Source: a bacterium (GTDB lineage Bacteria; Patescibacteriota; Minisyncoccia; Moranbacterales; GWC2-37-73). From it: 50,462 nucleotides of DNA. Every line of letters begins with the position of its first letter. Position 1 is the stretch's first letter. Where the stretch lies: contig JBAXDL010000007.1 in NCBI GenBank assembly GCA_037140955.1, forward strand, positions 1 through 50,462. Direction: 5' to 3'. The position numbers and the translations under genes were made by a program. Under the pieces are notes generated by a model. It was not told where the DNA came from. It saw nothing but the letters and a program-made list of their open reading frames with translations, and searched no databases. This document shows positions 1,468 to 13,064 of the stretch, piece after piece.

Positions 1468-2355
1468 ATGAACATTTTTATTGCCTTTCTTAATCCAATT
1501 ATTCATGGTTTTTCAAATACCTTAGATAGCCACCTAAGCAATAATATATTTTCCAGAGTTAGAGTTTTTGTTTTTTTTGGCGGTTTACTGAATCTATTTT
1601 CACTACCAATAATTTTTTCAATTACAAAACCAAACTTTTTAAGCATCGATGTCTTACCTTTTATTTTACTGATTGCTTTAATTGAAACCACATATCTTTT
1701 TCCATATTATAAGGCTGTAAAAGTTGCGGACACGTCAATTGTAAATGCACTATTTTCGTTAGGAAAAGTTTTTGTTCCTATTTTGGCTTTTTTTATAGTC
1801 AAAGAAAGACTGGCCACAGTTCAATATCTTGGTTTTATAGTTATAATAATTTCTAGCGTACTTTTAACTTTTGAGCCTAAAAATTTTAAATTTAACAAGT
1901 CTTTATTGCTGATGGGAATCGTTTCTATAATTTTAGCAATTGAAGGAATTATATATAAATATATCCTTGAATCTATCAGCTGGGGAACCGGATTCTTCTG
2001 GGTTACTTTATTTTCCAGTCTCATCTCAGTGTCAATCTTTGCACATAAGCCTAGCCAAGTAATAATCAAAGAGAATTTTAAGAGCTTCAAGAAAAGTTTT
2101 AAAATCTTGATAGCACAGGAAATATTAACATGGAGCGGAAATATGGTGGAAGTTTATGCGATCTCCATTTTACCGATAACCATGGTTAAAGGGATTACAT
2201 CATCGCAACCTATTTTTGTTCTAATTTACGCCGTGTTATTTGCAAAATTATTTCCGCATGCTTTCAAGGAGAAAACAGATATGGGAAATATGATTAAAAA
2301 GATAATACTTTTTTTAATAATGATTGGCGGAACATTATTAGTAATTCAAAAATAA
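1468..2355 (+). CDS. DMT/EamA-family membrane transporter
   Basis: 295 aa, about 10 hydrophobic segments in two repeats, LAFFIVKERL motif. Confidence 0.85.
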   Translation: MNIFIAFLNPIIHGFSNTLDSHLSNNIFSRVRVFVFFGGLLNLFSLPIIFSITKPNFLSIDVLPFILLIALIETTYLFPYYKAVKVADTSIVNALFSLGKVFVPILAFFIVKERLATVQYLGFIVIIISSVLLTFEPKNFKFNKSLLLMGIVSIILAIEGIIYKYILESISWGTGFFWVTLFSSLISVSIFAHKPSQVIIKENFKSFKKSFKILIAQEILTWSGNMVEVYAISILPITMVKGITSSQPIFVLIYAVLFAKLFPHAFKEKTDMGNMIKKIILFLIMIGGTLLVIQK

Positions 2356-6282: not shown

Positions 6283-6408
6283 TGGTTTTTTTGAGCGTGA
6301 GACCATTTCTCTTTTTGGCCAACAGTTGGCGACAGCAACTCTTGAGCTTTTGGATAATGAGTATTTCATCCAAAAGCGTGCCAAAAAGGAAAATGTCCGA
6401 GCATGGAG

Positions 6409-6438
6409 CCTGGATTCCCGCCTCCGCGGGAATGACAA
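6409..6438. repeat. dRS3/CGTC-REP-like palindrome copy 1
   Basis: CCTGGATTCCC-GCCTCCGC-GGGAATGACAA; second copy at 7907-7936. Confidence 0.75.
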
Positions 6439-6441
6439 ACA

Positions 6442-6469
6442 TTGACATATTATCTATTTCTGTTAGAAT
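6442..6469 (+). promoter_or_regulatory. putative promoter upstream of the rpmA leader
   Basis: TTGACA-16-TAGAAT with TG extension. Confidence 0.45.
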
Positions 6470-6653
6470 ATCCCTTGTAACACTGAGTGACATTGAATCA
6501 TCTTTGGGCTCCCGCGCTGGGCGCATTTCATTGCCAAATGAATCCAAACGAAATTCACTTGCCACATTTTCCCCCACATCATTTCTCTCATTATATAATA
6601 TTTATGGATATTGTGTAACTGGCAGAAAATGACTCGTGGAATATTTATAAATC

Positions 6654-6817
6654 GAGTGGCGCCCCTACACCAATTTCAAAGAAAGATTTTGGTAGTATTT
6701 TTATAGGTTTCACGGGTTTCGCCTTCGACTCGATTTATTTTTAATTAACATATTATTTAGCAATTGGTGCGGGATGCCATTTTTGTGGCCGCTCGTAACC
6801 TCGCAGACAAAAATGGC
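6654..6817 (+). repeat. structured leader repeat family B, copy 1 (ends at rpmA ATG)
   Basis: aligns with the reverse complement of 12064-12229; terminal ACCAATT/AATTGGT stem. Confidence 0.8.
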
Positions 6818-7274
6818 ACATCGTAAAGCCGGTGGGTCTACCCAACTCGGACGAGATTCAATCTCGAAAAGACTTGGTGTTAAGATCTTTGGAAATCAAA
6901 AAGTAAAAACTGGAAACATCATCCTTCGTCAACGCGGAACTGCATATCACGCTGGAAAAAATGTGATGCGATGCAATGATGACACTTTGATGTCTCTTGT
7001 TGATGGAATTGTGAAATTCACTTCAAAGAAAGTTAGAAACTTCACTGGAGTTTTGGTGACTCGTCGCTATGTTGCAGTTGAAAAATCTGACACACCGATC
7101 GAAATCAAACCAAAAAAGACTGGTGCCAAGAAAGCTGGAGCAAAACTTCGCGTGAACTTGAAAACCAACGAAGCTGGAAAGAAAAAAGGAGCTTGGAAGG
7201 TTGCAAGAAAACCAAACATGCGAAAGACAACTCGAAAGCATTTGGTTGCAAGAATCGCAAAGAAAGCGAAATAG
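6813..7274 (+). CDS. rpmA: 50S ribosomal protein L27 with long basic C-terminal extension
   Basis: [32 protein letters not shown] signature; true start 6813. Confidence 0.95.
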
Positions 7275-7315
7275 TAAAAATAGTCCATCAAGCCTAAAGT
7301 CGAAAGACTAAAAAG

Positions 7316-7349
7316 AAAAAAGAAACCTCGCATGAGGTTTCTTTTTTTT
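7316..7349. terminator. intrinsic terminator after rpmA
   Basis: AGAAACCTC-GCAT-GAGGTTTCT plus T run. Confidence 0.85.
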
Positions 7350-7350
7350 G

Positions 7351-7887
7351 CTAAATTTTATTCAAAAGATCATTTTTTATCAATTTCAGTCCATCCAGAC
7401 TACCAGTCCATGGTACTATCTTTCTGATCATTTCACTTTCAATCTCTTCAAAACTCATCCATCTAACTTCTTGAACCTCACCATCTTTGAAGGACAATTC
7501 ATCCAGACTGCCAGTAAAATTGTAATAAAAAACGGAAACAACTTCTTTATTTTTTCCGCCATCATAAAATTCAACCGGACCAGAAATCAAATTTTTCATT
7601 TCAATATTCAAGCCAGTTTCTTCTTGCAATTCTCTTTGTGTTGCTTCATGAATTGTTTGGCCTGCTTCTACATGTCCGCCGAAACGAGTATCCCAGCTGT
7701 TGGGGTTTGCTGATTTAAATTTTGATCTCAAATGTGGCAATATTTCAATATTGTTGCCATTTTTTCTATAACAAATAATACTCGTAGTCCTATGACGCAA
7801 ACCTTTTTCATGACAAAAGCTGCGAAGCTCTCTTTCTCCAGTCAAATTCCCTTTTTCATCAACAATATCAAGATATTCTTCAGACAT
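7351..7887 (-). CDS. NUDIX hydrolase (IPP-isomerase-like subfamily)
   Basis: GGHVEAGQTIHEATQRELQEETGL Nudix box; start MSEEYLDIVD. Confidence 0.88.
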   Translation of the reverse strand: MSEEYLDIVDEKGNLTGERELRSFCHEKGLRHRTTSIICYRKNGNNIEILPHLRSKFKSANPNSWDTRFGGHVEAGQTIHEATQRELQEETGLNIEMKNLISGPVEFYDGGKNKEVVSVFYYNFTGSLDELSFKDGEVQEVRWMSFEEIESEMIRKIVPWTGSLDGLKLIKNDLLNKI

Positions 7888-7906
7888 AAATTTTATACAC
7901 CAAAAA

Positions 7907-7936
7907 CCTGGATTCCCATTTTCATGGGAATGACAA
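7907..7936. repeat. dRS3/CGTC-REP-like palindrome copy 2
   Basis: CCTGGATTCCC-ATTTTCAT-GGGAATGACAA. Confidence 0.75.
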
Positions 7937-7963
7937 GAAGATAATTTCTTTTTATACAAAATA

Positions 7964-9604
7964 CTATTTCCCGCTTCGTTCCTTTGCAGCTTTTACAAAT
8001 TCAAAGAAAAGTGGGTGCGATGAAAGTGGGGTTGATTTGAATTCTGGGTGAAATTGTGAGGCCAGGAAAAATGGATGCTGCGATTTTGGAAGCTCAGCAA
8101 TTTCCATCAAAACTCCACTTGGAGATTTTCCAGAAAAAACAAGTCCGGCTTTTTCAAGACGAGCGACGTATTTTGGATTCACCTCATAACGATGTCTGTG
8201 ACGTTCTGAGATTTTTGCTTTTCCATATGCCCCAAATGCAATGGTGCCTTTTTGCAAAACTGCATCATATGCTCCAAGTCTCATGGTTGCTCCATAATTT
8301 CCAGCTTCCAAATTCTTTTTTTGTTCAGGCATGATGTCGATGATTGGATTTTTTGTGTCAACATTAACCTCAGTTGTATTGGCATCAACAATCCCAAGCA
8401 CATTGCGAGCATATTCAATCACAACAAGTTGCATGCCATAGCAAAGTCCAAAATATGGAATCAAATTTTCCCTGCAATATTGAATAGCTTTAATCTTTCC
8501 TTCGATTCCACGCGATCCAAAACCACCAGGAACAATGATTCCGTCATATTGAGACAATGATTCAATTTTTTCAGGATCTTTTTCAAAAACCTCAGAATTG
8601 ATCCAATCAAGTTCAGGCTTGACGCCAACTTTAAAACCAGCATGCTTGATGGCTTCAATCACACTTATGTAAGCATCTGAAAGCACAAAATCTCCGGTGC
8701 CAAAATATTTTCCAACAATTCCAATTTTAACTTTCTCCTTGGATGCCTTCACCCTCTTGACCAAATTTTCCCATTGTTTCAAATCTGATTTCTTTTCTTT
8801 CAAGCGAAGTTTTTTGAGAATAATTTTGCTTAAATTGTCACGTTCAAAATTTAGCAAAACGTCATAGACACTTTCCACATCAGGAGCGCTGATCACGCAT
8901 TCCTCAGGAACAGAGCAGAACATGGAAATTTTTTCTTTGCGTTTGGCATCCATTGGAACTTCTGAGCGTGCCACAATAATGTCAGGCTGCACTCCGGCGC
9001 CATTGACCGTTCTCACTGCATGCTGCGTTGGCTTGGTTTTCATTTCGCCAATTTTGTTTGGACATGGCACAAAGCTCACCATTACAGACAAAACATCTTC
9101 AGGGTGCTTGGTTTTCATCATGCGAATAGTCTCCATGAAAAGAATGTTTTCATATTCCCCAACTGTTCCACCAATTTCAATAATGGTAATGTCTGATTTG
9201 GCCTTGTTTGATGCATGCACAATGCGATCAATTACTTCCAATGGAATGTGAGGCACAACTTGCACGCACTTTCCAGCATATTCCAAATTGCGTTCCCGAT
9301 GAATCACTGATTCATACACGCGACCAGTGGTCATATAGTTGTCGCGAGAAAGAGTGATTTCCATGAAGCGTTCATAATTCCCCATGTCTTGATCTGTTTC
9401 ATCGCCATCATCCAACACAAAAACCTCCCCATGTTCAGTTGGATTCATGGTTCCAGCATCAACATTCACATATGGATCAATTTTGATTGCAGTCACATTA
9501 TATCCGCGAGCTTTCAAGATCGCGCCAATTGAAGATGTTGTAATCCCCTTTCCAACACCACTCATCACTCCACCCATCACGAAGATGTATTTTCGATTTT
9601 CCAT
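7964..9604 (-). CDS. pyrG: CTP synthase
   Basis: GGVMSGVGKG, KIDPYVNVDAGTMNP, GLCYGMQ, ERHRHRYEVN, QFHPEF. Confidence 0.98.
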   Translation of the reverse strand: MENRKYIFVMGGVMSGVGKGITTSSIGAILKARGYNVTAIKIDPYVNVDAGTMNPTEHGEVFVLDDGDETDQDMGNYERFMEITLSRDNYMTTGRVYESVIHRERNLEYAGKCVQVVPHIPLEVIDRIVHASNKAKSDITIIEIGGTVGEYENILFMETIRMMKTKHPEDVLSVMVSFVPCPNKIGEMKTKPTQHAVRTVNGAGVQPDIIVARSEVPMDAKRKEKISMFCSVPEECVISAPDVESVYDVLLNFERDNLSKIILKKLRLKEKKSDLKQWENLVKRVKASKEKVKIGIVGKYFGTGDFVLSDAYISVIEAIKHAGFKVGVKPELDWINSEVFEKDPEKIESLSQYDGIIVPGGFGSRGIEGKIKAIQYCRENLIPYFGLCYGMQLVVIEYARNVLGIVDANTTEVNVDTKNPIIDIMPEQKKNLEAGNYGATMRLGAYDAVLQKGTIAFGAYGKAKISERHRHRYEVNPKYVARLEKAGLVFSGKSPSGVLMEIAELPKSQHPFFLASQFHPEFKSTPLSSHPLFFEFVKAAKERSGK

Positions 9605-9605
9605 T

Positions 9606-9733
9606 CCAGGTAGTAGAAATTCAAATGAGCTTTGCTCAAAAAAATTCTATATTTTTATATTATATTAAAAAATATGGCTAAAATTTATATTACAAAATAT
9701 CACTTGCTTATTTTTTGAATTTTCACTACCTGG
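9606..9733. mobile_element. MITE-like palindromic element family A, copy 1
   Basis: terminal IR CCAGGTAGT/ACTACCTGG flanked by CATT direct repeats (9602-9605, 9734-9737); homologous to 43720-43842. Confidence 0.75.
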
Positions 9734-9884
9734 CATTTTGTTTTATCCCCCAATGATTAAGAAATAATATAACCTCAATTTGTGTGAATTTTTGACTTTG
9801 ATATGCAAAAAGTCGCGAAATTGCGACTGCGGGTTTGTAATGTTAAAAGTTACTACTCATGCTAAATTCATTTTACACTATTTT

Positions 9885-10322
9885 CTAAGCCTGTTCAACT
9901 GTCAAAACAATGGTGGCTTTGATGCCAAAATCAAGCTCAATAATGATCTTTTTTTCACCAAGCTCTTTGATGTGGTCAATCTTAATGGCCTTTTCAGAAA
10001 TTTCGATTCCACTTTTCTTTATTTCTTGTGCAATTTCTTTGACAGTGATTGAACCAAAAAGCTTGCCATCTTTTGCTCTGGCTTTTAGCACAAAATGCTT
10101 ACCATCAATAGATGCAGCCAATTTTTCAACTGTTTGTTTTTGCAAAGCCAATTGCAGTTTTTTCTTGTCATCCTCTTGCTTGGCACTGCTCAAATTTGTG
10201 GCAGTGGCCGGCGCTGCCAATTTGCGAGCGAGCAAAAAATTGCGAGCATAACCATCGGGAACATTCTTGATTTGACCCTTTTTTCCAACATTTTTGACGT
10301 CCTGAAGAAATATTACTTGCAT
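9885..10322 (-). CDS. rplI: 50S ribosomal protein L9
   Basis: [34 protein letters not shown]. Confidence 0.96.
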
Positions 10323-10381
10323 ATATTTTTTAAGTTAAGTGTTAATCTTTCATATTAGTATAGCCATTTTTTTCAAACAAA

Positions 10382-11074
10382 TCAAATGACACACTTGATT
10401 TGTCTTTTGTTTCGCATGAACACAAAAACAAACAAGGCCTGAGATGCAATTGTTTTCATTATTTCAATATCCTCAATTCTTTGACTTGCTCCTGATTTTT
10501 TGATCACAATATATGAAAAAATATTATCAATAGCACGCGGCGAAGTAATGATGATGAAATTTTTAAATTCAAAATGACTAATGCCAAATTCTCTACCTTT
10601 AAATGAAAAATCAATTTCAATTTCTTGATTATTTTTAAATTCCTTAATCAAGGCATAATCCTGCAACTGCACAAATCTAAGAGAAAAATCATTTGACTTT
10701 GCAAACAAACGAATTGCTTGCATGATATCATCAAACAATTCTGTTTTCCCTTGTGGTGTTAGCTTTGAGCTTTCCGGATACCCTAGGGCTATATTTTCCA
10801 AAATATCAAGCTTTCTGTTGATTTCTCCAATATATGAATAGGAATATTTAAGATCCTTAGACATACTATTAACTCGTCCTTGAATTTTATTTTTTTCAAC
10901 AAGATTTTTATTATAAAGCTTTTCCAACATCAAAAACAAGCCAAAGCCAATTGAGCCAAGAACCAAAATGGCAAGCTCTTGAACTTGAGTAGCACTAAGA
11001 AAATAAAAACCACTATTAATAGAAGTTGGAACGAAAACTATAAAGATAAAAATGGTCAAATATATCCAATACAT
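10382..11074 (-). CDS. hypothetical membrane protein
   Basis: two N-terminal TM segments, coiled coil, possible degenerate GAF-like C-terminus. Confidence 0.7.
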   Translation of the reverse strand: MYWIYLTIFIFIVFVPTSINSGFYFLSATQVQELAILVLGSIGFGLFLMLEKLYNKNLVEKNKIQGRVNSMSKDLKYSYSYIGEINRKLDILENIALGYPESSKLTPQGKTELFDDIMQAIRLFAKSNDFSLRFVQLQDYALIKEFKNNQEIEIDFSFKGREFGISHFEFKNFIIITSPRAIDNIFSYIVIKKSGASQRIEDIEIMKTIASQALFVFVFMRNKRQIKCVI

Positions 11075-11143
11075 AGTCCTTGATTCCTTAACGATTGGTT
11101 AGTTATTCTCGCATAAACATTGGCTATTGTCAATTTGGTAAAC

Positions 11144-11179
11144 AAAAAAATCCTTACTTTTGACAGTTAGGATTTTTTT
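11144..11179 (-). terminator. intrinsic terminator after galU
   Basis: AAAAAAATCCT/AGGATTTTTTT stem. Confidence 0.7.
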
Positions 11180-11195
11180 GTTTTTTACAAGAAAA

Positions 11196-12068
11196 CTAAA
11201 TATTTTTGCAACCTTTCAAATATTCGCGCAATTTTTCTCCAATCTCCGGATGCTTGAGTCCCATGTGAATTGTGGCTTTCACAAAATTGAATTTGTCGCC
11301 AGTGTCCAACCACTCTCCTTCCAAAACTTTTCCATATAACGGACGATCATTTTTGAGCATAATTTCAAAAGCATCAATCAAGCGAATTTCTCCAGACTTG
11401 CCATGATCCATTGTTGCCAAAACATCAAAAACTTCAGGAGTAACAATATATTTTCCCACCGCCACCAAATTTGATGGAGCATCTTCTCTTTTTGGTTTTT
11501 CTACCAAGCCTTTGACTTCATATGTTTTGTCATCAATTTTGACACCATCAATAACTCCAAACAAAGAAACTTGATCATCTGGCACTTCACTCAATCCAAT
11601 CACTGGGTCGCCATATTTTTCATAGGTATCCATGAGTTGTTTTGAAGCTGGAACCTCGCTGTCATACAAGCAATCACCAAAGATCACCAAGGCTGGTTCG
11701 CCATTGAGCAAATGAGCAGCTTGGAGGAGCGCATGACCGTCGCCAAGTGGTTTTGATTGACGAACATAGGAAAACTTGGCTAGCCCTGAAATCTTGCTTA
11801 CTGTTTCAAGCAAAGCATGTTTGTTTTTTTCCACCAAAGTGTCTTCAAGCTCATATGAGATGTCAAAGTGATCCTCAATTGCTCGTTTGCCACGACCAGT
11901 CACAAAAATGATTTCTTCAATTCCGGCAGCCACAGCCTCTTCAACCAAATATTGAATCACCGGCTTGTCTACAATTGGCAGCATTTCTTTTGGCTGAGCT
12001 TTGGTGGCCGGCAAAAATCTTGTTCCAAATCCTGCCACTGGTAAAATTGCTTTTCGTATTTTCGCCAT
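11196..12068 (-). CDS. galU: UTP--glucose-1-phosphate uridylyltransferase
   Basis: KAILPVAGFGTRFLPATKAQPKEMLPIVDKP; start MAKIRKA. Confidence 0.95.
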   Translation of the reverse strand: MAKIRKAILPVAGFGTRFLPATKAQPKEMLPIVDKPVIQYLVEEAVAAGIEEIIFVTGRGKRAIEDHFDISYELEDTLVEKNKHALLETVSKISGLAKFSYVRQSKPLGDGHALLQAAHLLNGEPALVIFGDCLYDSEVPASKQLMDTYEKYGDPVIGLSEVPDDQVSLFGVIDGVKIDDKTYEVKGLVEKPKREDAPSNLVAVGKYIVTPEVFDVLATMDHGKSGEIRLIDAFEIMLKNDRPLYGKVLEGEWLDTGDKFNFVKATIHMGLKHPEIGEKLREYLKGCKNI

Positions 12069-12229
12069 TTTTGTTTGTGAGGTACGAGCAATCACAAAAA
12101 TGAGCGCCCCGTACCAATTTTCGATTATATATTAATTTAAAATAAATCGAGCCGAAGGCGGAACCCGTGAATAATTCTCATTCATACCAAGATCTTTTTT
12201 TGAAATTGGTACTGGGGCAACCCACTTCT
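12064..12229 (-). repeat. structured leader repeat family B, copy 2 (ends at galU ATG)
   Basis: homologous to 6654-6817 in the same orientation relative to the gene. Confidence 0.8.
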
Positions 12230-12236
12230 CGTTTCG

Positions 12237-13064
12237 TTATTGTAATCTTTTTTTACTCCTTGCTTTCAACTCTTCATTAAACTCAGTAATTGCCTGATCC
12301 AAAATTGGGTGGAAATTTCTACTAATCCCTTTTTCTTTCACAATGATACTCGCCTCCAAAAGAGAGTCAGGTGTTCCAGCATCAAGCCACTCACCGGAAA
12401 ACATGGTCACTTCCAATTGTTTTTTCTTGAGATACGCTTTGTTGATGTCAGTAATTTCAATTTCTCCTCGCTCTGATGGTTTGGTTTTTTTGGCAATTTC
12501 CACACATTGATTGTCATACAAATACAATCCAGTCACAGCATAATCACTGATCCAAGTTGTAGGTTTTTCCACAATTTCCATGGCCCTGTTTTCTTTGTTG
12601 AATCTGACAACTCCAAATCGTTCAGGGTCAGAAACTTTTTTGGCAAAAACATGACCACCAACTCGAAAATCTCTGATTTGTTTGGCAAAATCATCTTCAA
12701 AAATGTTGTCTCCCAAAATCAGTGCCACATTGTCATCACCAATGTGATTTTCACCCAAAGTCAAAGCCTCAGCAAGCCCACGAGGAGTCGATTGTACTTC
12801 AAAAGTAATATGAATGCCATGTTTTTTGAGCAATGATCCCAGAAGATTCAAAAATTGACCAGAATGCTCTGGCGCCACAATCACCAAGATATCCTTAATC
12901 CCGGCTTTTATAAGCGTGTTTAATGGGTAAAAAATCATTTGCCTGTCATATACTGGCAAAAGTTGTTTTGAGGTTGTTGCTGTCATCGGAAAAAGTCTCG
13001 TGGCAGTTCCACCAGCAAGCACAATTCCTTTCATTTTTCTTTTTCTTGGTTTTATTGTTTCCAT
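12237..13064 (-). CDS. rmlA: glucose-1-phosphate thymidylyltransferase
   Basis: KGIVLAGGTATRL, SKQLLPVYD, PSERGEIEITD, WLDAGT. Confidence 0.88.
   Translation of the reverse strand: METIKPRKRKMKGIVLAGGTATRLFPMTATTSKQLLPVYDRQMIFYPLNTLIKAGIKDILVIVAPEHSGQFLNLLGSLLKKHGIHITFEVQSTPRGLAEALTLGENHIGDDNVALILGDNIFEDDFAKQIRDFRVGGHVFAKKVSDPERFGVVRFNKENRAMEIVEKPTTWISDYAVTGLYLYDNQCVEIAKKTKPSERGEIEITDINKAYLKKKQLEVTMFSGEWLDAGTPDSLLEASIIVKEKGISRNFHPILDQAITEFNEELKARSKKRLQ

Follow-up and report, generated by a model that had tools for sequence, protein, structure and literature searches.

The stretch analysed here, a window of 50,462 nt from a Moranbacterales genome, carries rpmA on the forward strand and, on the reverse strand, a galU-like gene preceded by a co-directional RmlA-like gene (Table 1). 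Before rpmA and before the galU-like gene lie two related structured stretches, copies A (+) and B (-), which share 82% mean column identity when 6600-6830 (+) is aligned with 12050-12290 (-) by MAFFT, and 78% identity over query positions 8-164 by BLAST within the genome (E 5.7e-28). A preliminary description of this DNA had reported homology between 6654-6817 (+) and 12064-12229 (-); all of the sequence blocks quoted there are common to both copies, and its end coordinates proved correct to within 1-2 nt. Both copies do end, as it had claimed, in the start codons of the two genes (6813-6815 for rpmA, 12068-12066 for the galU-like gene), each ATG lying within a hairpin stem, and the homology stops at ATGGC. 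Copy B takes up the whole 168-nt spacer that separates the RmlA-like stop codon (TAA, 12239-12237), which is 1 nt from it, from the galU-like ATG. BLAST found no third full copy in the 1.15-Mb genome, leaving two intact copies, and the next best forward-strand match there to our covariance model, R1, scored 20.3 bits.

Table 1. Features of the two element copies and of the adjoining genes (window coordinates).
Feature	Position	Strand	Details
Promoter-like site TTGACA-16-TAGAAT (TG-extended)	6442..6469	+	11/12 matches; 170 nt upstream of copy A
Element copy A, whole	6643..6818	+	R1 covariance-model match, 130.4 bits (model 1-174); ends in ATGGCA of rpmA
Copy A 5' flank GAGUGGCG, optional P0 partner of GCCAU(U)	6654..6661	+	Duplex -9.6 kcal/mol, p 0.01 vs shuffles
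Copy A P1 5' arm (CCCC-UA-CACCAAUU)	6662..6675	+	Pairs with 6762-6773
Copy A internal hairpin P3	6713..6742	+	Family motif CGCC-loop-GGC; here widened to CGGGUUUCGCCUUCGACUCG, then U-run
Copy A A/U-rich linker, length roughly constant	6743..6761	+	Alignment columns
Copy A P1 3' arm (AAUUGGUG-C-GGG)	6762..6773	+	Also complementary to hairpin loop
Copy A start-codon hairpin	6775..6818	+	5' strand UGCCAUUUUUGU 6775-6786; loop region 6787-6806; 3' strand ACAAAAAUGGCA 6807-6818
rpmA (ribosomal protein L27, Lys-rich C-terminal extension)	6813..7274	+	Pfam Ribosomal_L27, 1.2e-29
galU-like nucleotidyl transferase gene	11196..12068	-	Pfam NTP_transferase, 2.4e-33
Copy B start-codon hairpin	12063..12106	-	5' strand CGC(U)CAUUUUUGU 12106-12094; 3' strand ACAAAAAUGGCG 12074-12063
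Element copy B, whole	12063..12235	-	R1 match, 139.4 bits
Copy B P1 3' arm (AAUUGGUAC-GGGG)	12107..12119	-	Predicted fold
Copy B internal hairpin CGGGUUCCGCCUUCGGCUCG with U-run, terminator-like	12138..12167	-	Terminator scan
Copy B P1 5' arm (CCCC-A-GUACCAAUU)	12204..12217	-	Predicted fold
Copy B 5' flank GAGAAGUGGGUUG, P0 partner of CGCUCAUUUUUGU, several G-U pairs	12218..12230	-	Minimum-energy fold; duplex -11.4 kcal/mol, p 0.03
RmlA-like nucleotidyl transferase gene, upstream, co-directional	12237..13064	-	Pfam NTP_transferase, 1.3e-56

The promoter-like site at 6442-6469 is likely to start a transcript covering the whole of copy A; the site and the sequence after it are kept in congeners without the element. 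Canonical promoter sites were called here and upstream of rnpB, and the promoter scan called no sigma-70-like promoter on the sense strand inside either copy. A sigma-70 promoter cassette was rejected on this ground, there being no sense-strand -35/-10 pair within A or B. A terminator-like site was called at 6713-6732 (+), within copy A, its appearance being due to the widening of P3 and the U-run that follows. Aligning the copies shows compensation in P3, with U-A in one and C-G in the other.

Copies A and B belong to a large, previously undescribed family of elements of about 170 nt in Moranbacteria and related Parcubacteria. Covariance-model matches were found in 56 of 151 genomes of the order (Candidatus Moranbacteria), leaving 95 negative, and weaker forms of the element in 59 of 151 genomes of the class; the full matches, drawn from 98 loci, number 79, of which 76 are distinct. 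This is a repeated leader family and not a single duplication. Copy number per genome of about 1 Mb ranges from 0 to at least 33, the latter being the forward-strand copies at 68 bits or more in genome G064 (~1 Mb), and contig ends fall inside copies of the element. At gathering score, Rfam 15 had no match in the window, and a search of 6400-12500 at E values up to 5 gave eight weak matches, none overlapping either copy.

The suggestion that the element supplies or controls translation starts implied a bias in position, and this bias is strong. Among 105 copies examined, 93 adjoin the start of an open reading frame, 77 at the element's own ATG, inside the hairpin stem, and 16 at +5, where the start codon is at the hairpin foot. 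The same holds for 23 of 28 informative copies in a model-based sample of G064, the sole genome sampled without a sequence pattern. Only 34 of 562 crude gene starts in the present genome read ATGGC, as against 77 of the 105 copies. Every copy has the orientation of its gene, and 32 of 75 begin about 23 nt or less from the stop of a co-directional upstream reading frame, including within ribosomal-protein operons. In the +5 copies of G064 the element's ATG has changed to TTG (4) or ATT (3), each with a matching change across the stem; in other +5 copies AUGGCAUGA encodes Met-Ala-stop overlapping the true AUG. This compensated loss of the AUG, confined to copies whose gene starts elsewhere, shows that selection acts at the level of translation and that ribosomes see the element's AUG. 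Copies also create in-frame upstream ATG or GTG codons that mislead gene callers.

Among the genes that follow the element, more than 40 Pfam families are represented, without a common pathway. These genes encode ribosomal proteins, NusG and NusB, IF-1, EF-Ts, RF, GlyRS, chaperones and sugar-nucleotide enzymes, and further include pilus genes, UvrA, an MFS transporter, a nuclease and cell-envelope genes. GGAGG precedes only 12 of 560 starts in this genome, which does not use the Shine-Dalgarno sequence. The cost of opening the start region has a median of 6.25 kcal/mol in 74 copies compared with 3.4 in 120 control starts, a modest excess in that 15% of the control starts exceed the median of the copies.

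The element consists of a long-range helix, P1 (14-21 bp), which closes a domain, followed by the 16-bp start-codon hairpin, and both helices carry compensatory changes. Between the arms of P1 lie a poorly conserved A/U-rich linker of about 29 nt and a variable hairpin; the conserved internal motifs are CACGGAAUCGCC..GGCUUAG and the hairpin loop CUCGUACCUCG, the loop being conserved in mRNA copies and replaced by plain tetraloops in copies within rnpB. The inverted repeat formed by P1 and its extension stops about 40 nt short of the 3' end, with the conserved hairpin outside it. The pairing of CAUUUUUGU with ACAAAAAUG, proposed earlier as burying the AUG, is predicted in both copies and shows compensatory changes across relatives. 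In alignment A5, 93.8% of the cells were paired, where shuffles gave 87.8% and slid partners 35-46%, and two-sided changes occurred at 20 of 33 pairs (133 cells vs 27.7), a level reached by none of 500 shuffles. Covariation in P1 was seen across 76 copies. Pair 208/312 is U-A in 50, A-U in 13 and G-C in 11, and the pair closing the hairpin, formed by Y and the third base of codon 2, is U-A in 48 and C-G in 23 (U-A in copy A, C-G in copy B). Most sequences of the large alignment were gathered by a pattern fixing much of the hairpin 5' strand; the same covariation is present in 23 copies collected by BLAST without the pattern. The start-codon hairpin therefore covaries, and the family has the compensatory changes to be expected of a structured cis-acting RNA leader.

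G-U pairs had been put forward as strand-specific evidence that the structure is one of RNA, and this argument stands for the optional pairing of the 5' flank but fails for the core helices. G-U cells were fewer there than A-C cells in P1 (8 vs 17), in the outer hairpin (3 vs 8) and in the inner stem (1 vs 35), giving 12 against 60 in total, although the A-C cells cluster in few subfamilies and the events are not independent; the pattern of G-U tolerated and A-C not tolerated was thus absent. Fold energies of the sense and antisense strands are likewise close (-49.8 vs -49.6 kcal/mol; 53 vs 46 of 100 copies), and pairings rich in G-U are confined to the optional P0 and P2'. Near-absence of G-U together with equal strands is what one expects of an inverted repeat maintained at the DNA level, or of a fold selected on the other strand, and the almost complete lack of G-U in the core helices keeps a DNA-level repeat among the readings weighed below.

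The alternative pairing of the AUG-hairpin segment with the 5' arm, also described earlier, is real in both window copies. This P0 pairing (GAGUGGCG in A, GAGAAGUGGGUUG in B, with several G-U pairs) is the minimum-energy fold of copy B, whose two states lie about 1.5 kcal/mol apart, and in the duplex test copies A and B are among the strongest of 75. In copy A, the modelled P0 would lengthen P1 and free the AUG. Family-wide, the partner is significantly complementary in just 22 of 75 copies, and by column 56.3% of the cells pair compared with 54.1% in shuffles. A two-state switch is thus plausible for the window copies but cannot be the general mechanism of the family. Significant complementarity between the hairpin loop and the P1 arm occurs in 32 of 76 copies; in copy A it involves the 3' arm, and a pseudoknot is possible there. 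An 11-nt stretch of the loop, noticed after the fact, is also complementary to CGAGGUGCGAG in the RNase P RNA of this genome.

Occupancy of orthologous sites varies among relatives. At rpmA the element is present only in this genome among those shown, seven congeners carrying a different spacer of about 90 nt and not an empty site, so that the element takes the place of a variable spacer and is not a simple insertion. At nusG, congeners have the element and this genome lacks it, and at rplT all that this genome retains is a decayed relic. Orthologous copies are kept from genus to genus, and the nearest copies differ by 9-30%. Three genomes have copies within rnpB, namely G064, that of locus L097 (two copies) and G030, at a P3 position and in J2/4, the same J2/4 place being used in two genomes; these are helix-closed insertions in a stable RNA gene, like intervening sequences. 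Where copies lengthen rnpB, its Rfam match falls under the gathering score in one of two genomes (L097, 86.7 bits; L201, 100 bits). A P1-type unit is nested in the hairpin loop of another copy, and one copy consists of P1 only with no gene after it. From the rnpB copies and the P1-only copy it follows that a translation start is not required for a copy to persist, and the element can be dispensed with at any single gene. Its number per genome and its occupancy of orthologous sites vary as those of a mobile repeat do, and the congener differences and the copies in rnpB and in another copy fit the mobility, or duplicative spread, supposed in the preliminary description. A flanking (A/G)TGGC direct repeat accompanies only part of the copies, and neither a clean target-site duplication nor a link to a transposase was found for the element. 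The unit is not bounded by a terminal inverted repeat at each end, as MITE-like or Correia-like elements are, the hairpin lying beyond the repeat.

We consider the element most likely to be a duplicating, structured, Shine-Dalgarno-free translation-start leader, and it may serve as a portable module setting the translation start of housekeeping genes. Each copy would be transcribed with the gene that follows. P1 would close a domain and insulate the start structure from upstream sequence, and the 3' strand of the hairpin would form an A-rich, Shine-Dalgarno-free initiation region ending AUGGC(R), by which the element would provide, or merge with, the start codon of the gene as a standard, self-contained start structure. 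Since Shine-Dalgarno sequences are unused in these genomes, initiation would need a single-stranded start region, and so the hairpin should hold initiation down. How often it opens may be set by rival pairings, one between (A/G)UGGC of the 5' flank and GC(U)CAU, the other between the 3' arm of P1 and the hairpin loop, with presumed effects on switching and translation; ribosomes terminating on an upstream gene may also open it. The family would have spread by duplication, recombination or transposition, preferring genes that already start ATGGC. Taken whole (a transcribed leader that provides or merges with the AUG, a hairpin that restrains initiation and a family that spreads), this is the best explanation of the data, and we put its probability at about one half. 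In a bolder form, which we think has only a slim chance of being right, the element would be a mobile and self-propagating 'start-codon cassette' with its own Shine-Dalgarno-independent ribosome entry and AUG, homing to ATGGC starts and to permissive sites in stable RNAs such as RNase P RNA, where it would be processed or tolerated as RNA, and standardising the initiation of core genes across this class of ultra-small bacteria.

The range in copy number, the contig ends inside copies, the differing occupancy of rpmA and nusG within one genus, the rnpB insertions at two positions, the nested unit, and core helices that are nearly pure Watson-Crick and equally stable on both strands could all belong to a non-autonomous mobile DNA repeat of MITE-like or palindromic type, with inverted repeats kept for transposition or arm-templated repair and any effect on expression incidental. 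Copies of such a repeat would survive at gene starts because the ATGGC end and the A-rich initiation region make insertion harmless. We regard this as possible though unlikely, since it leaves the best-conserved part, the hairpin and tail, outside the inverted repeat and lacks both a transposase link and a clean target-site duplication, and at rpmA a variable spacer of about 90 nt was replaced. It must also accommodate orthologous copies persisting across genera, a divergence of 9-30% between nearest copies, which argues against a recent burst, the compensated loss of the AUG in just those copies whose gene starts elsewhere, and the fixed orientation of every copy.

Two further readings, like the leader, place the function in RNA. 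By analogy with rRNA intervening sequences and the RNase III sites of phage T7, P1 and the 16-bp hairpin might be cut by a double-strand-specific RNase, which would separate cistrons, set mature 5' ends near the AUG and free RNase P RNA precursors of the element. P1 and the hairpin have the length that RNase III needs, entire spacers within operons are taken up by the element, the start codon is found at the hairpin foot or 5 nt inside it, and copies are tolerated in rnpB at P3 and J2/4, with a third genome also having an rnpB copy. Two AUG positions, in the stem and at the foot, are nevertheless a misfit for a single cut making leaderless mRNAs, and the conserved loop and optional 5'-flank pairing are left unaccounted for, so that we judge such processing rather improbable. 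Least credible to us, and very improbable, is a riboswitch-like or protein-binding leader in which a P1-closed three-way domain binds one global signal or factor (a ribosomal protein, RNase P or a metabolite tied to growth rate) and opens the AUG hairpin. The layout does resemble an aptamer with an expression platform, the hairpin sharing nucleotides with the P1 extension; the translation-related genes and chaperones would make a coherent, growth-related regulon, and the conserved internal motifs, the loop and its post hoc complementarity to RNase P RNA could be read in the same way. Against it, the junction, a poorly conserved A/U-rich linker with a variable hairpin, does not resemble a ligand pocket; the genes served are very diverse, taking in sugar-nucleotide enzymes, pilus genes, UvrA, an MFS transporter and a nuclease; most copies lack the switch partner; some copies lie in rnpB; and gain and loss among close relatives is unusual for a regulon. 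Rfam, moreover, gave no match even at E 5. A riboswitch defined by a conserved pocket and a single-metabolite regulon was rejected, given the variable linker and the more than 40 Pfam families.

The bacteria of the Candidate Phyla Radiation are uncultured, and to our knowledge the control of their gene expression is almost unknown. If the start-leader reading is true, one folded leader fused to the start codon, at up to 33 or more copies per Mb, would be a major feature of translation start in these cells, and also an abundant RNA family that is new and lacks an Rfam entry. The rnpB copies, the gain and loss in relatives and the compensated loss of the AUG offer a tractable case for the spread of regulatory or selfish RNA structures in minimal genomes. 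In practical terms, the copies break assemblies at contig ends, depress the Rfam scores of rnpB and mislead gene callers.

Among known systems, T-box and ribosomal-protein leaders (Eckert and Weinberg 2020, PMC7247131) are likewise structured leaders, multi-copy or operon-leading, before translation-related genes, but here one leader serves more than 40 gene families and not one autoregulating protein. No T-box or known r-leader model in Rfam matched the element, and the terms CPR, candidate phyla and Patescibacteria are absent from that article. In the translational expression platforms of riboswitches and in RNA thermometers such as fourU, an A-U-rich hairpin also holds the initiation region and alternative pairing can release it. 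In our family, by contrast, the AUG itself is buried and not a Shine-Dalgarno sequence, the releasing partner occurs in just 22 of 75 copies, and many copies per genome precede unrelated genes with no conserved ligand pocket seen. The rRNA intervening sequences removed by RNase III resemble the rnpB copies as self-contained, helix-closed and lineage-variable insertions in a stable RNA gene, whereas most copies of our element lie in mRNA leaders. Mycobacterial interspersed repetitive units (MIRUs) too are intergenic, lie in operons and have ends overlapping flanking stop and start codons, much as some copies here read Met-Ala-stop over the true AUG, but they are short tandem direct repeats encoding small peptides, and our element is a single folded unit of about 170 nt with covarying helices. 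The Correia elements (CREE/NEMIS) of Neisseria are intergenic, co-transcribed with their neighbours and form long RNA hairpins. They share with our family an intergenic position, a length of about 100-170 nt, inverted repeats, a presence that varies between relatives and, as we suppose here, long RNA hairpins, co-transcription and the ability to influence expression. Our family differs from them in being class-wide, with copies 9-30% diverged and no target duplication or promoter function found, in having a second conserved hairpin beyond the inverted repeat, and in its fixed orientation, with a 3' end that merges with the start codon.

The two stretches proved to be as the preliminary description had them: the regions 6600-6830 (+) and 12050-12290 (-) showed 82% mean column identity and had all of the quoted blocks in common, and the element does end at gene starts, the homology of copies A and B running no further than ATGGC. 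A BLAST search within their own genome (1.15 Mb, 27 contigs) returned only these two copies, at 78% identity and E 5.7e-28. Copy B wholly occupies the 168-nt gap 3' of a co-directional RmlA-like gene. In both copies the middle of the element holds a hairpin with a U-run that resembles a terminator and is specific to the lineage. In structure prediction, the proposed AUG-burying pairing of CAUUUUUGU with ACAAAAAUG is possible in both copies, and pairing with the 5' flank instead gives copy B its predicted minimum-energy fold and is also predicted to be strong in copy A. The start-codon stem reaches codon 2, with a closing pair of C-G in copy B and U-A in copy A. Because the hairpin contains an in-frame ATG in copy A and GTG in copy B, ORF finders lengthen rpmA by 13 codons and the galU-like gene by 9, and the starts of both genes are likely prone to misplacement by gene callers.

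Coordinates of element copies and associated features (positions in the window unless a contig or locus is named)
Feature	Location	Strand	Remarks
Element copy A	6643-6818	+	at rpmA
Element copy B	12063-12235	-	at galU-like gene
rpmA start ATG	6813-6815	+	sequence, Pfam
galU-like NTP_transferase start ATG	12068-12066	-	sequence, Pfam
RmlA-like gene stop	12239-12237	-	
In-frame hairpin ATG, copy A	6774	+	
In-frame hairpin GTG, copy B	12095	-	
Loop CUCGUACCUCG, copy A	6792-6802	+	
Loop CUCGUACCUCG, copy B	12079-12088	-	
Promoter-like site and conserved region	6442-6640	+	5' of rpmA
L27 gene (rpmA)	6813-7274	+	
Bidirectional terminator-like hairpin	7314-7349		
Interval with promoter-like TTGACA-17-GAGAAT and sub-threshold Thr_leader match	11105-11182	- (promoter-like site)	between galU-like gene and next ORF
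Decayed element relic	own genome, C1:39848-39999	+	before rplT, outside window
Unrelated sequence in place of element	own genome, C3, about 100 nt 5' of nusG	-	
RNase P RNA segment CGAGGUGCGAG	own genome, C11, about 26219		
Lengthened rnpB, genome G064	L201 (C13) 1471-2056	-	one copy in J2/4, directly 5' of ACAGAAUCCGGCUUA
Lengthened rnpB	L097 226-845	-	one copy in J2/4 as in G064, second at P3 position
rnpB insertion, genome G030			R1 match inside rnpB match
mRNA copy with nested P1-type unit	L116 573-815	+	5' of release-factor gene

Several other features lie near the two genes. The L27 protein (153 aa) ends in a Lys-rich extension of about 65 residues, conserved in all eight congeners at 90-97% identity, and a perfect 16-bp hairpin, with U-runs on either strand like a bidirectional terminator, sits between rpmA and a convergent NUDIX gene. 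The promoter-like site behind the galU-like gene, together with a sub-threshold Thr_leader match in the same interval (26.4 bits; gathering score 55), is probably a chance occurrence. Upstream of rpmA there is a strong promoter-like site at 6442-6469 (TTGACA-16-TAGAAT with TG), and the 170 nt or so that come after it are conserved; both the site and this stretch also occur 5' of rpmA in seven congeners without the element. None of the ORFs in this region matched Pfam, nor did the region match Rfam, and it may serve rpmA as a separate leader or small RNA.

Among relatives, BLAST matched 26 of 41 genomes, initially mostly through the 3' 57 nt of the element, and when the upstream DNA was read the entire unit was found to be conserved. 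It is composed of an optional flank (A/G)UGGC, a 5' arm UCCC(A)GCACCAA(A)UUC, CCGAA followed by a variable hairpin, CACGGAAWCGCC-loop-GGCUUAG, an A/U-rich linker of about 29 nt, a 3' arm GAAUUGGUGCGGGA, and the hairpin YGC(U)CAUNUUUGU-AG-CUGC-loop-GCAG-ACAAANAUGGCR, where Y is the pyrimidine of the closing pair. A covariance model of the element, R1, scored 139.4 and 130.4 bits on the two copies in their own genome, with the next forward-strand match at 20.3 bits. This last match is the relic before rplT, in which the arms and AAAATGGCG are still discernible and the hairpin is eroded; other genera have an intact orthologous copy at rplT. On the fetched loci R1 gave 79 full matches (76 distinct) in 98 loci. 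Across the order, with up to 18 candidates per genome scored, it matched at least 56 of 151 genomes and at least 37 of 76 genera, patchily by family (17/20 genomes in f1, 0/20 in f8). Matches across the class scored lower and came from 59 of 151 genomes, belonging to 52 of 124 genera. The matching contigs are labelled Candidatus Moranbacteria/Moraniibacteriota, Parcubacteria group, Paceibacterota or Harrisonbacteria, a few having other submitter labels, and the high-copy genome G064 (1.0 Mb) holds 33 forward-strand copies that score 68 bits or more, several of which lie at contig ends.

The helices were supported by covariation. Over 76 distinct copies the 33 pairs of R1 were 93.8% paired, against 87.8% in shuffles and 35-46% when partners were slid by 1-3 columns; both sides had changed at 20 of the 33 pairs (133 cells, 27.7 expected), and none of 500 shuffles equalled any measure. 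Covariation was strongest at 208/312 (U-A 50, A-U 13, G-C 11), at 219/304, at 201/318, where Y pairs with the third base of codon 2 (U-A 48, C-G 23), and in the long-range helix P1 at 36/186 (C-G 67, U-A 7) and 32/190 (A-U 68, G-C 6). These were the top mutual-information pairs as well. A pattern scan in which much of the 5' strand of the hairpin is fixed supplied most of the aligned sequences, a bias we consider limited because the covarying positions were left free by the pattern, because 23 BLAST-derived copies show the same covariation, and because the model-derived G064 copies bring variants outside the pattern.

The expected bias of the element toward start codons was evident: an ORF of at least 40 aa begins at the element ATG (offset 0) in 77 of 105 copies and at +5 in 16, the latter class reading ..GGCATG, with six copies lacking an ORF and six at other offsets. 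In G064, where copies were gathered by R1 and thus independently of the sequence pattern, the 28 informative copies were divided into 13 at offset 0, 10 at +5, one in rnpB and four other cases, two further copies being cut by contig ends. Gene starts with ATGGC number only 34 of 562 in the own genome, by crude start assignment. The element ATG is often lost in the +5 class with a compensating stem change, as in the G064 copies that combine AAAAUUGGC with GCUCAAUUUU (four copies and the rnpB copy) or AAAAAUUGC with GCUAAUUUUU (three copies); outside G064, AUGGCAUGA encodes Met-Ala-stop, which overlaps the true start. These cases show that the stem persists with or without the AUG, and that translation exerts selection on the AUG. 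Coding by the hairpin, with the ATG of GGGATGC in frame with the start, was rejected, because 28 of 79 copies have C at Y and the length of the loop differs by 1-2 nt between copies. The downstream genes identified with Pfam encode, among others, ribosomal proteins (L33, L11, L20, L27, L7/L12, S14, L23, L24, S12, L14, L3, L4, S8, S13, L22, L13), NusG, NusB, IF-1, EF-Ts, release factor, class II tRNA synthetase, DnaJ, GroEL, MurA, UvrA, MreB, FtsQ, NrdD, PilC, sugar-nucleotide and glycosyl transferases, NifU, HypC, an MFS transporter, and NYN and PD-(D/E)XK proteins. A co-directional upstream ORF stops within about 23 nt of the start of the R1 match in 32 of 75 copies, and four copies lie within one 4-kb stretch of a ribosomal-protein operon.

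The own genome does without Shine-Dalgarno sequences: of 560 starts, 12 have GGAGG upstream, and the stretch from -8 to -2 is A-rich. Opening of positions -12 to +6 was predicted to cost a median of 6.25 kcal/mol in 74 copies versus 3.4 in 120 control starts; the predicted cost for the start region is 5.4 kcal/mol in copy A and only 1.5 in copy B. An internal promoter (-35 GCTTAG, -10 TTTAAT, transcript from GAAUUGG) was rejected as the main reading: most copies lack A at position 2 of the -10 box, no sense-strand site was called, and canonical TTGACA/TATAAT promoters occur elsewhere in the genome. It is also unlikely because P1 requires the 5' arm in the same RNA.

The two-state model fits the window copies well, copy B above all, and in the family it is an optional elaboration, not the core. 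P0, the pairing of the 5' flank with GC(U)CAU that would free the AUG, gives a better duplex than shuffles in 22 of 75 copies (p<=0.05); the mean duplex energy over the 75 copies is -5.1 kcal/mol, against -3.4 in shuffles, and the column-level signal is weak (56.3% paired versus 54.1%). In 32 of 76 copies the 3' arm GGUGCGGG is significantly complementary to the loop CUCGUACC, and loci L038 and L093 show matching changes. A further possible helix, UUCCG/CGGAA, a rival of the P1 base, was weakly supported (76.8% paired, 75.4% in shuffles). The argument from strand-specific G-U pairs held for the optional P0 and P2' pairings only. In the core helices, which are almost free of G-U pairs, the usual strand signature of structured RNA is absent, and this speaks against a fold at the RNA level: G-U and A-C counts were 8 vs 17 in P1, 3 vs 8 in the outer hairpin and 1 vs 35 in the inner stem, counts that are not independent events because the A-C cases cluster in subfamilies, and both strands of the element fold equally stably. 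The loop CUCGUACCUCG is complementary to the element's own 3' arm and, over 11 nt with one G-U, to the own RNase P RNA, a match found post hoc in a genome with nine such 10-mers at up to one mismatch.

Comparison of relatives pointed to turnover of the element. At rpmA, all seven congeners with upstream DNA read lack it and carry, downstream of the common promoter and conserved leader, some 90 nt of a different spacer, and at nusG it is present in congeners and absent from the own genome, where a tandem repeat CTTTACGGA x3 stands directly 5' of ATGGCAAAACAG. Nearest copies are 9-30% apart and orthologous copies remain closest between close genomes, as judged by distances and gene labels, the genome labels being faulty for 45 rows. 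One copy in another order has P1 alone and no gene downstream. The rnpB copies have plain tetraloop hairpins in place of the conserved loop; the own-genome rnpB is 325 nt long without insertion. The cmscan layout of L097, whose rnpB scores below the Rfam gathering score, would make the hairpin P1-P3 of RNase P RNA, a reading we rejected: the true P1 and P2 strands lie further out, and the element is therefore an insertion. Since rnpB matches across the order vary in length between 323 and 749 nt, other insertions are likely. At L116, a helix-closed unit CCCCGCACUAAA...UUUAGUGCGGGG, bordered by CUCG at both ends, is nested in the hairpin loop.

We favor, at a probability of about one half, the reading of the element as a translation-start leader that is transcribed, spreads by duplication and has a hairpin that holds back an A-rich initiation site, because of its fixed orientation, its fusion to start codons, the compensated loss of unused AUGs, the lack of Shine-Dalgarno sequences and the long persistence of orthologous copies. 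Set beside the turnover between relatives, a mobile repeat acting at the DNA level, with incidental effects, is possible if doubtful. An RNase III-type processing or intervening-sequence module, to be considered next to the rnpB insertions, seems unlikely, and a switch binding a ligand or factor appears improbable. The leader reading and these three alternatives are not mutually exclusive and can hold together.

Rfam 15 gave no match on either copy at the gathering score or at E up to 5, and we found no description of it in the literature on RNAs, leaders or riboswitches of Moranbacteria, Parcubacteria, Patescibacteria or CPR. Nor did we find it described in PMC8172020, which reports RNase P RNAs in CPR that have diverged and carry large helix extensions.
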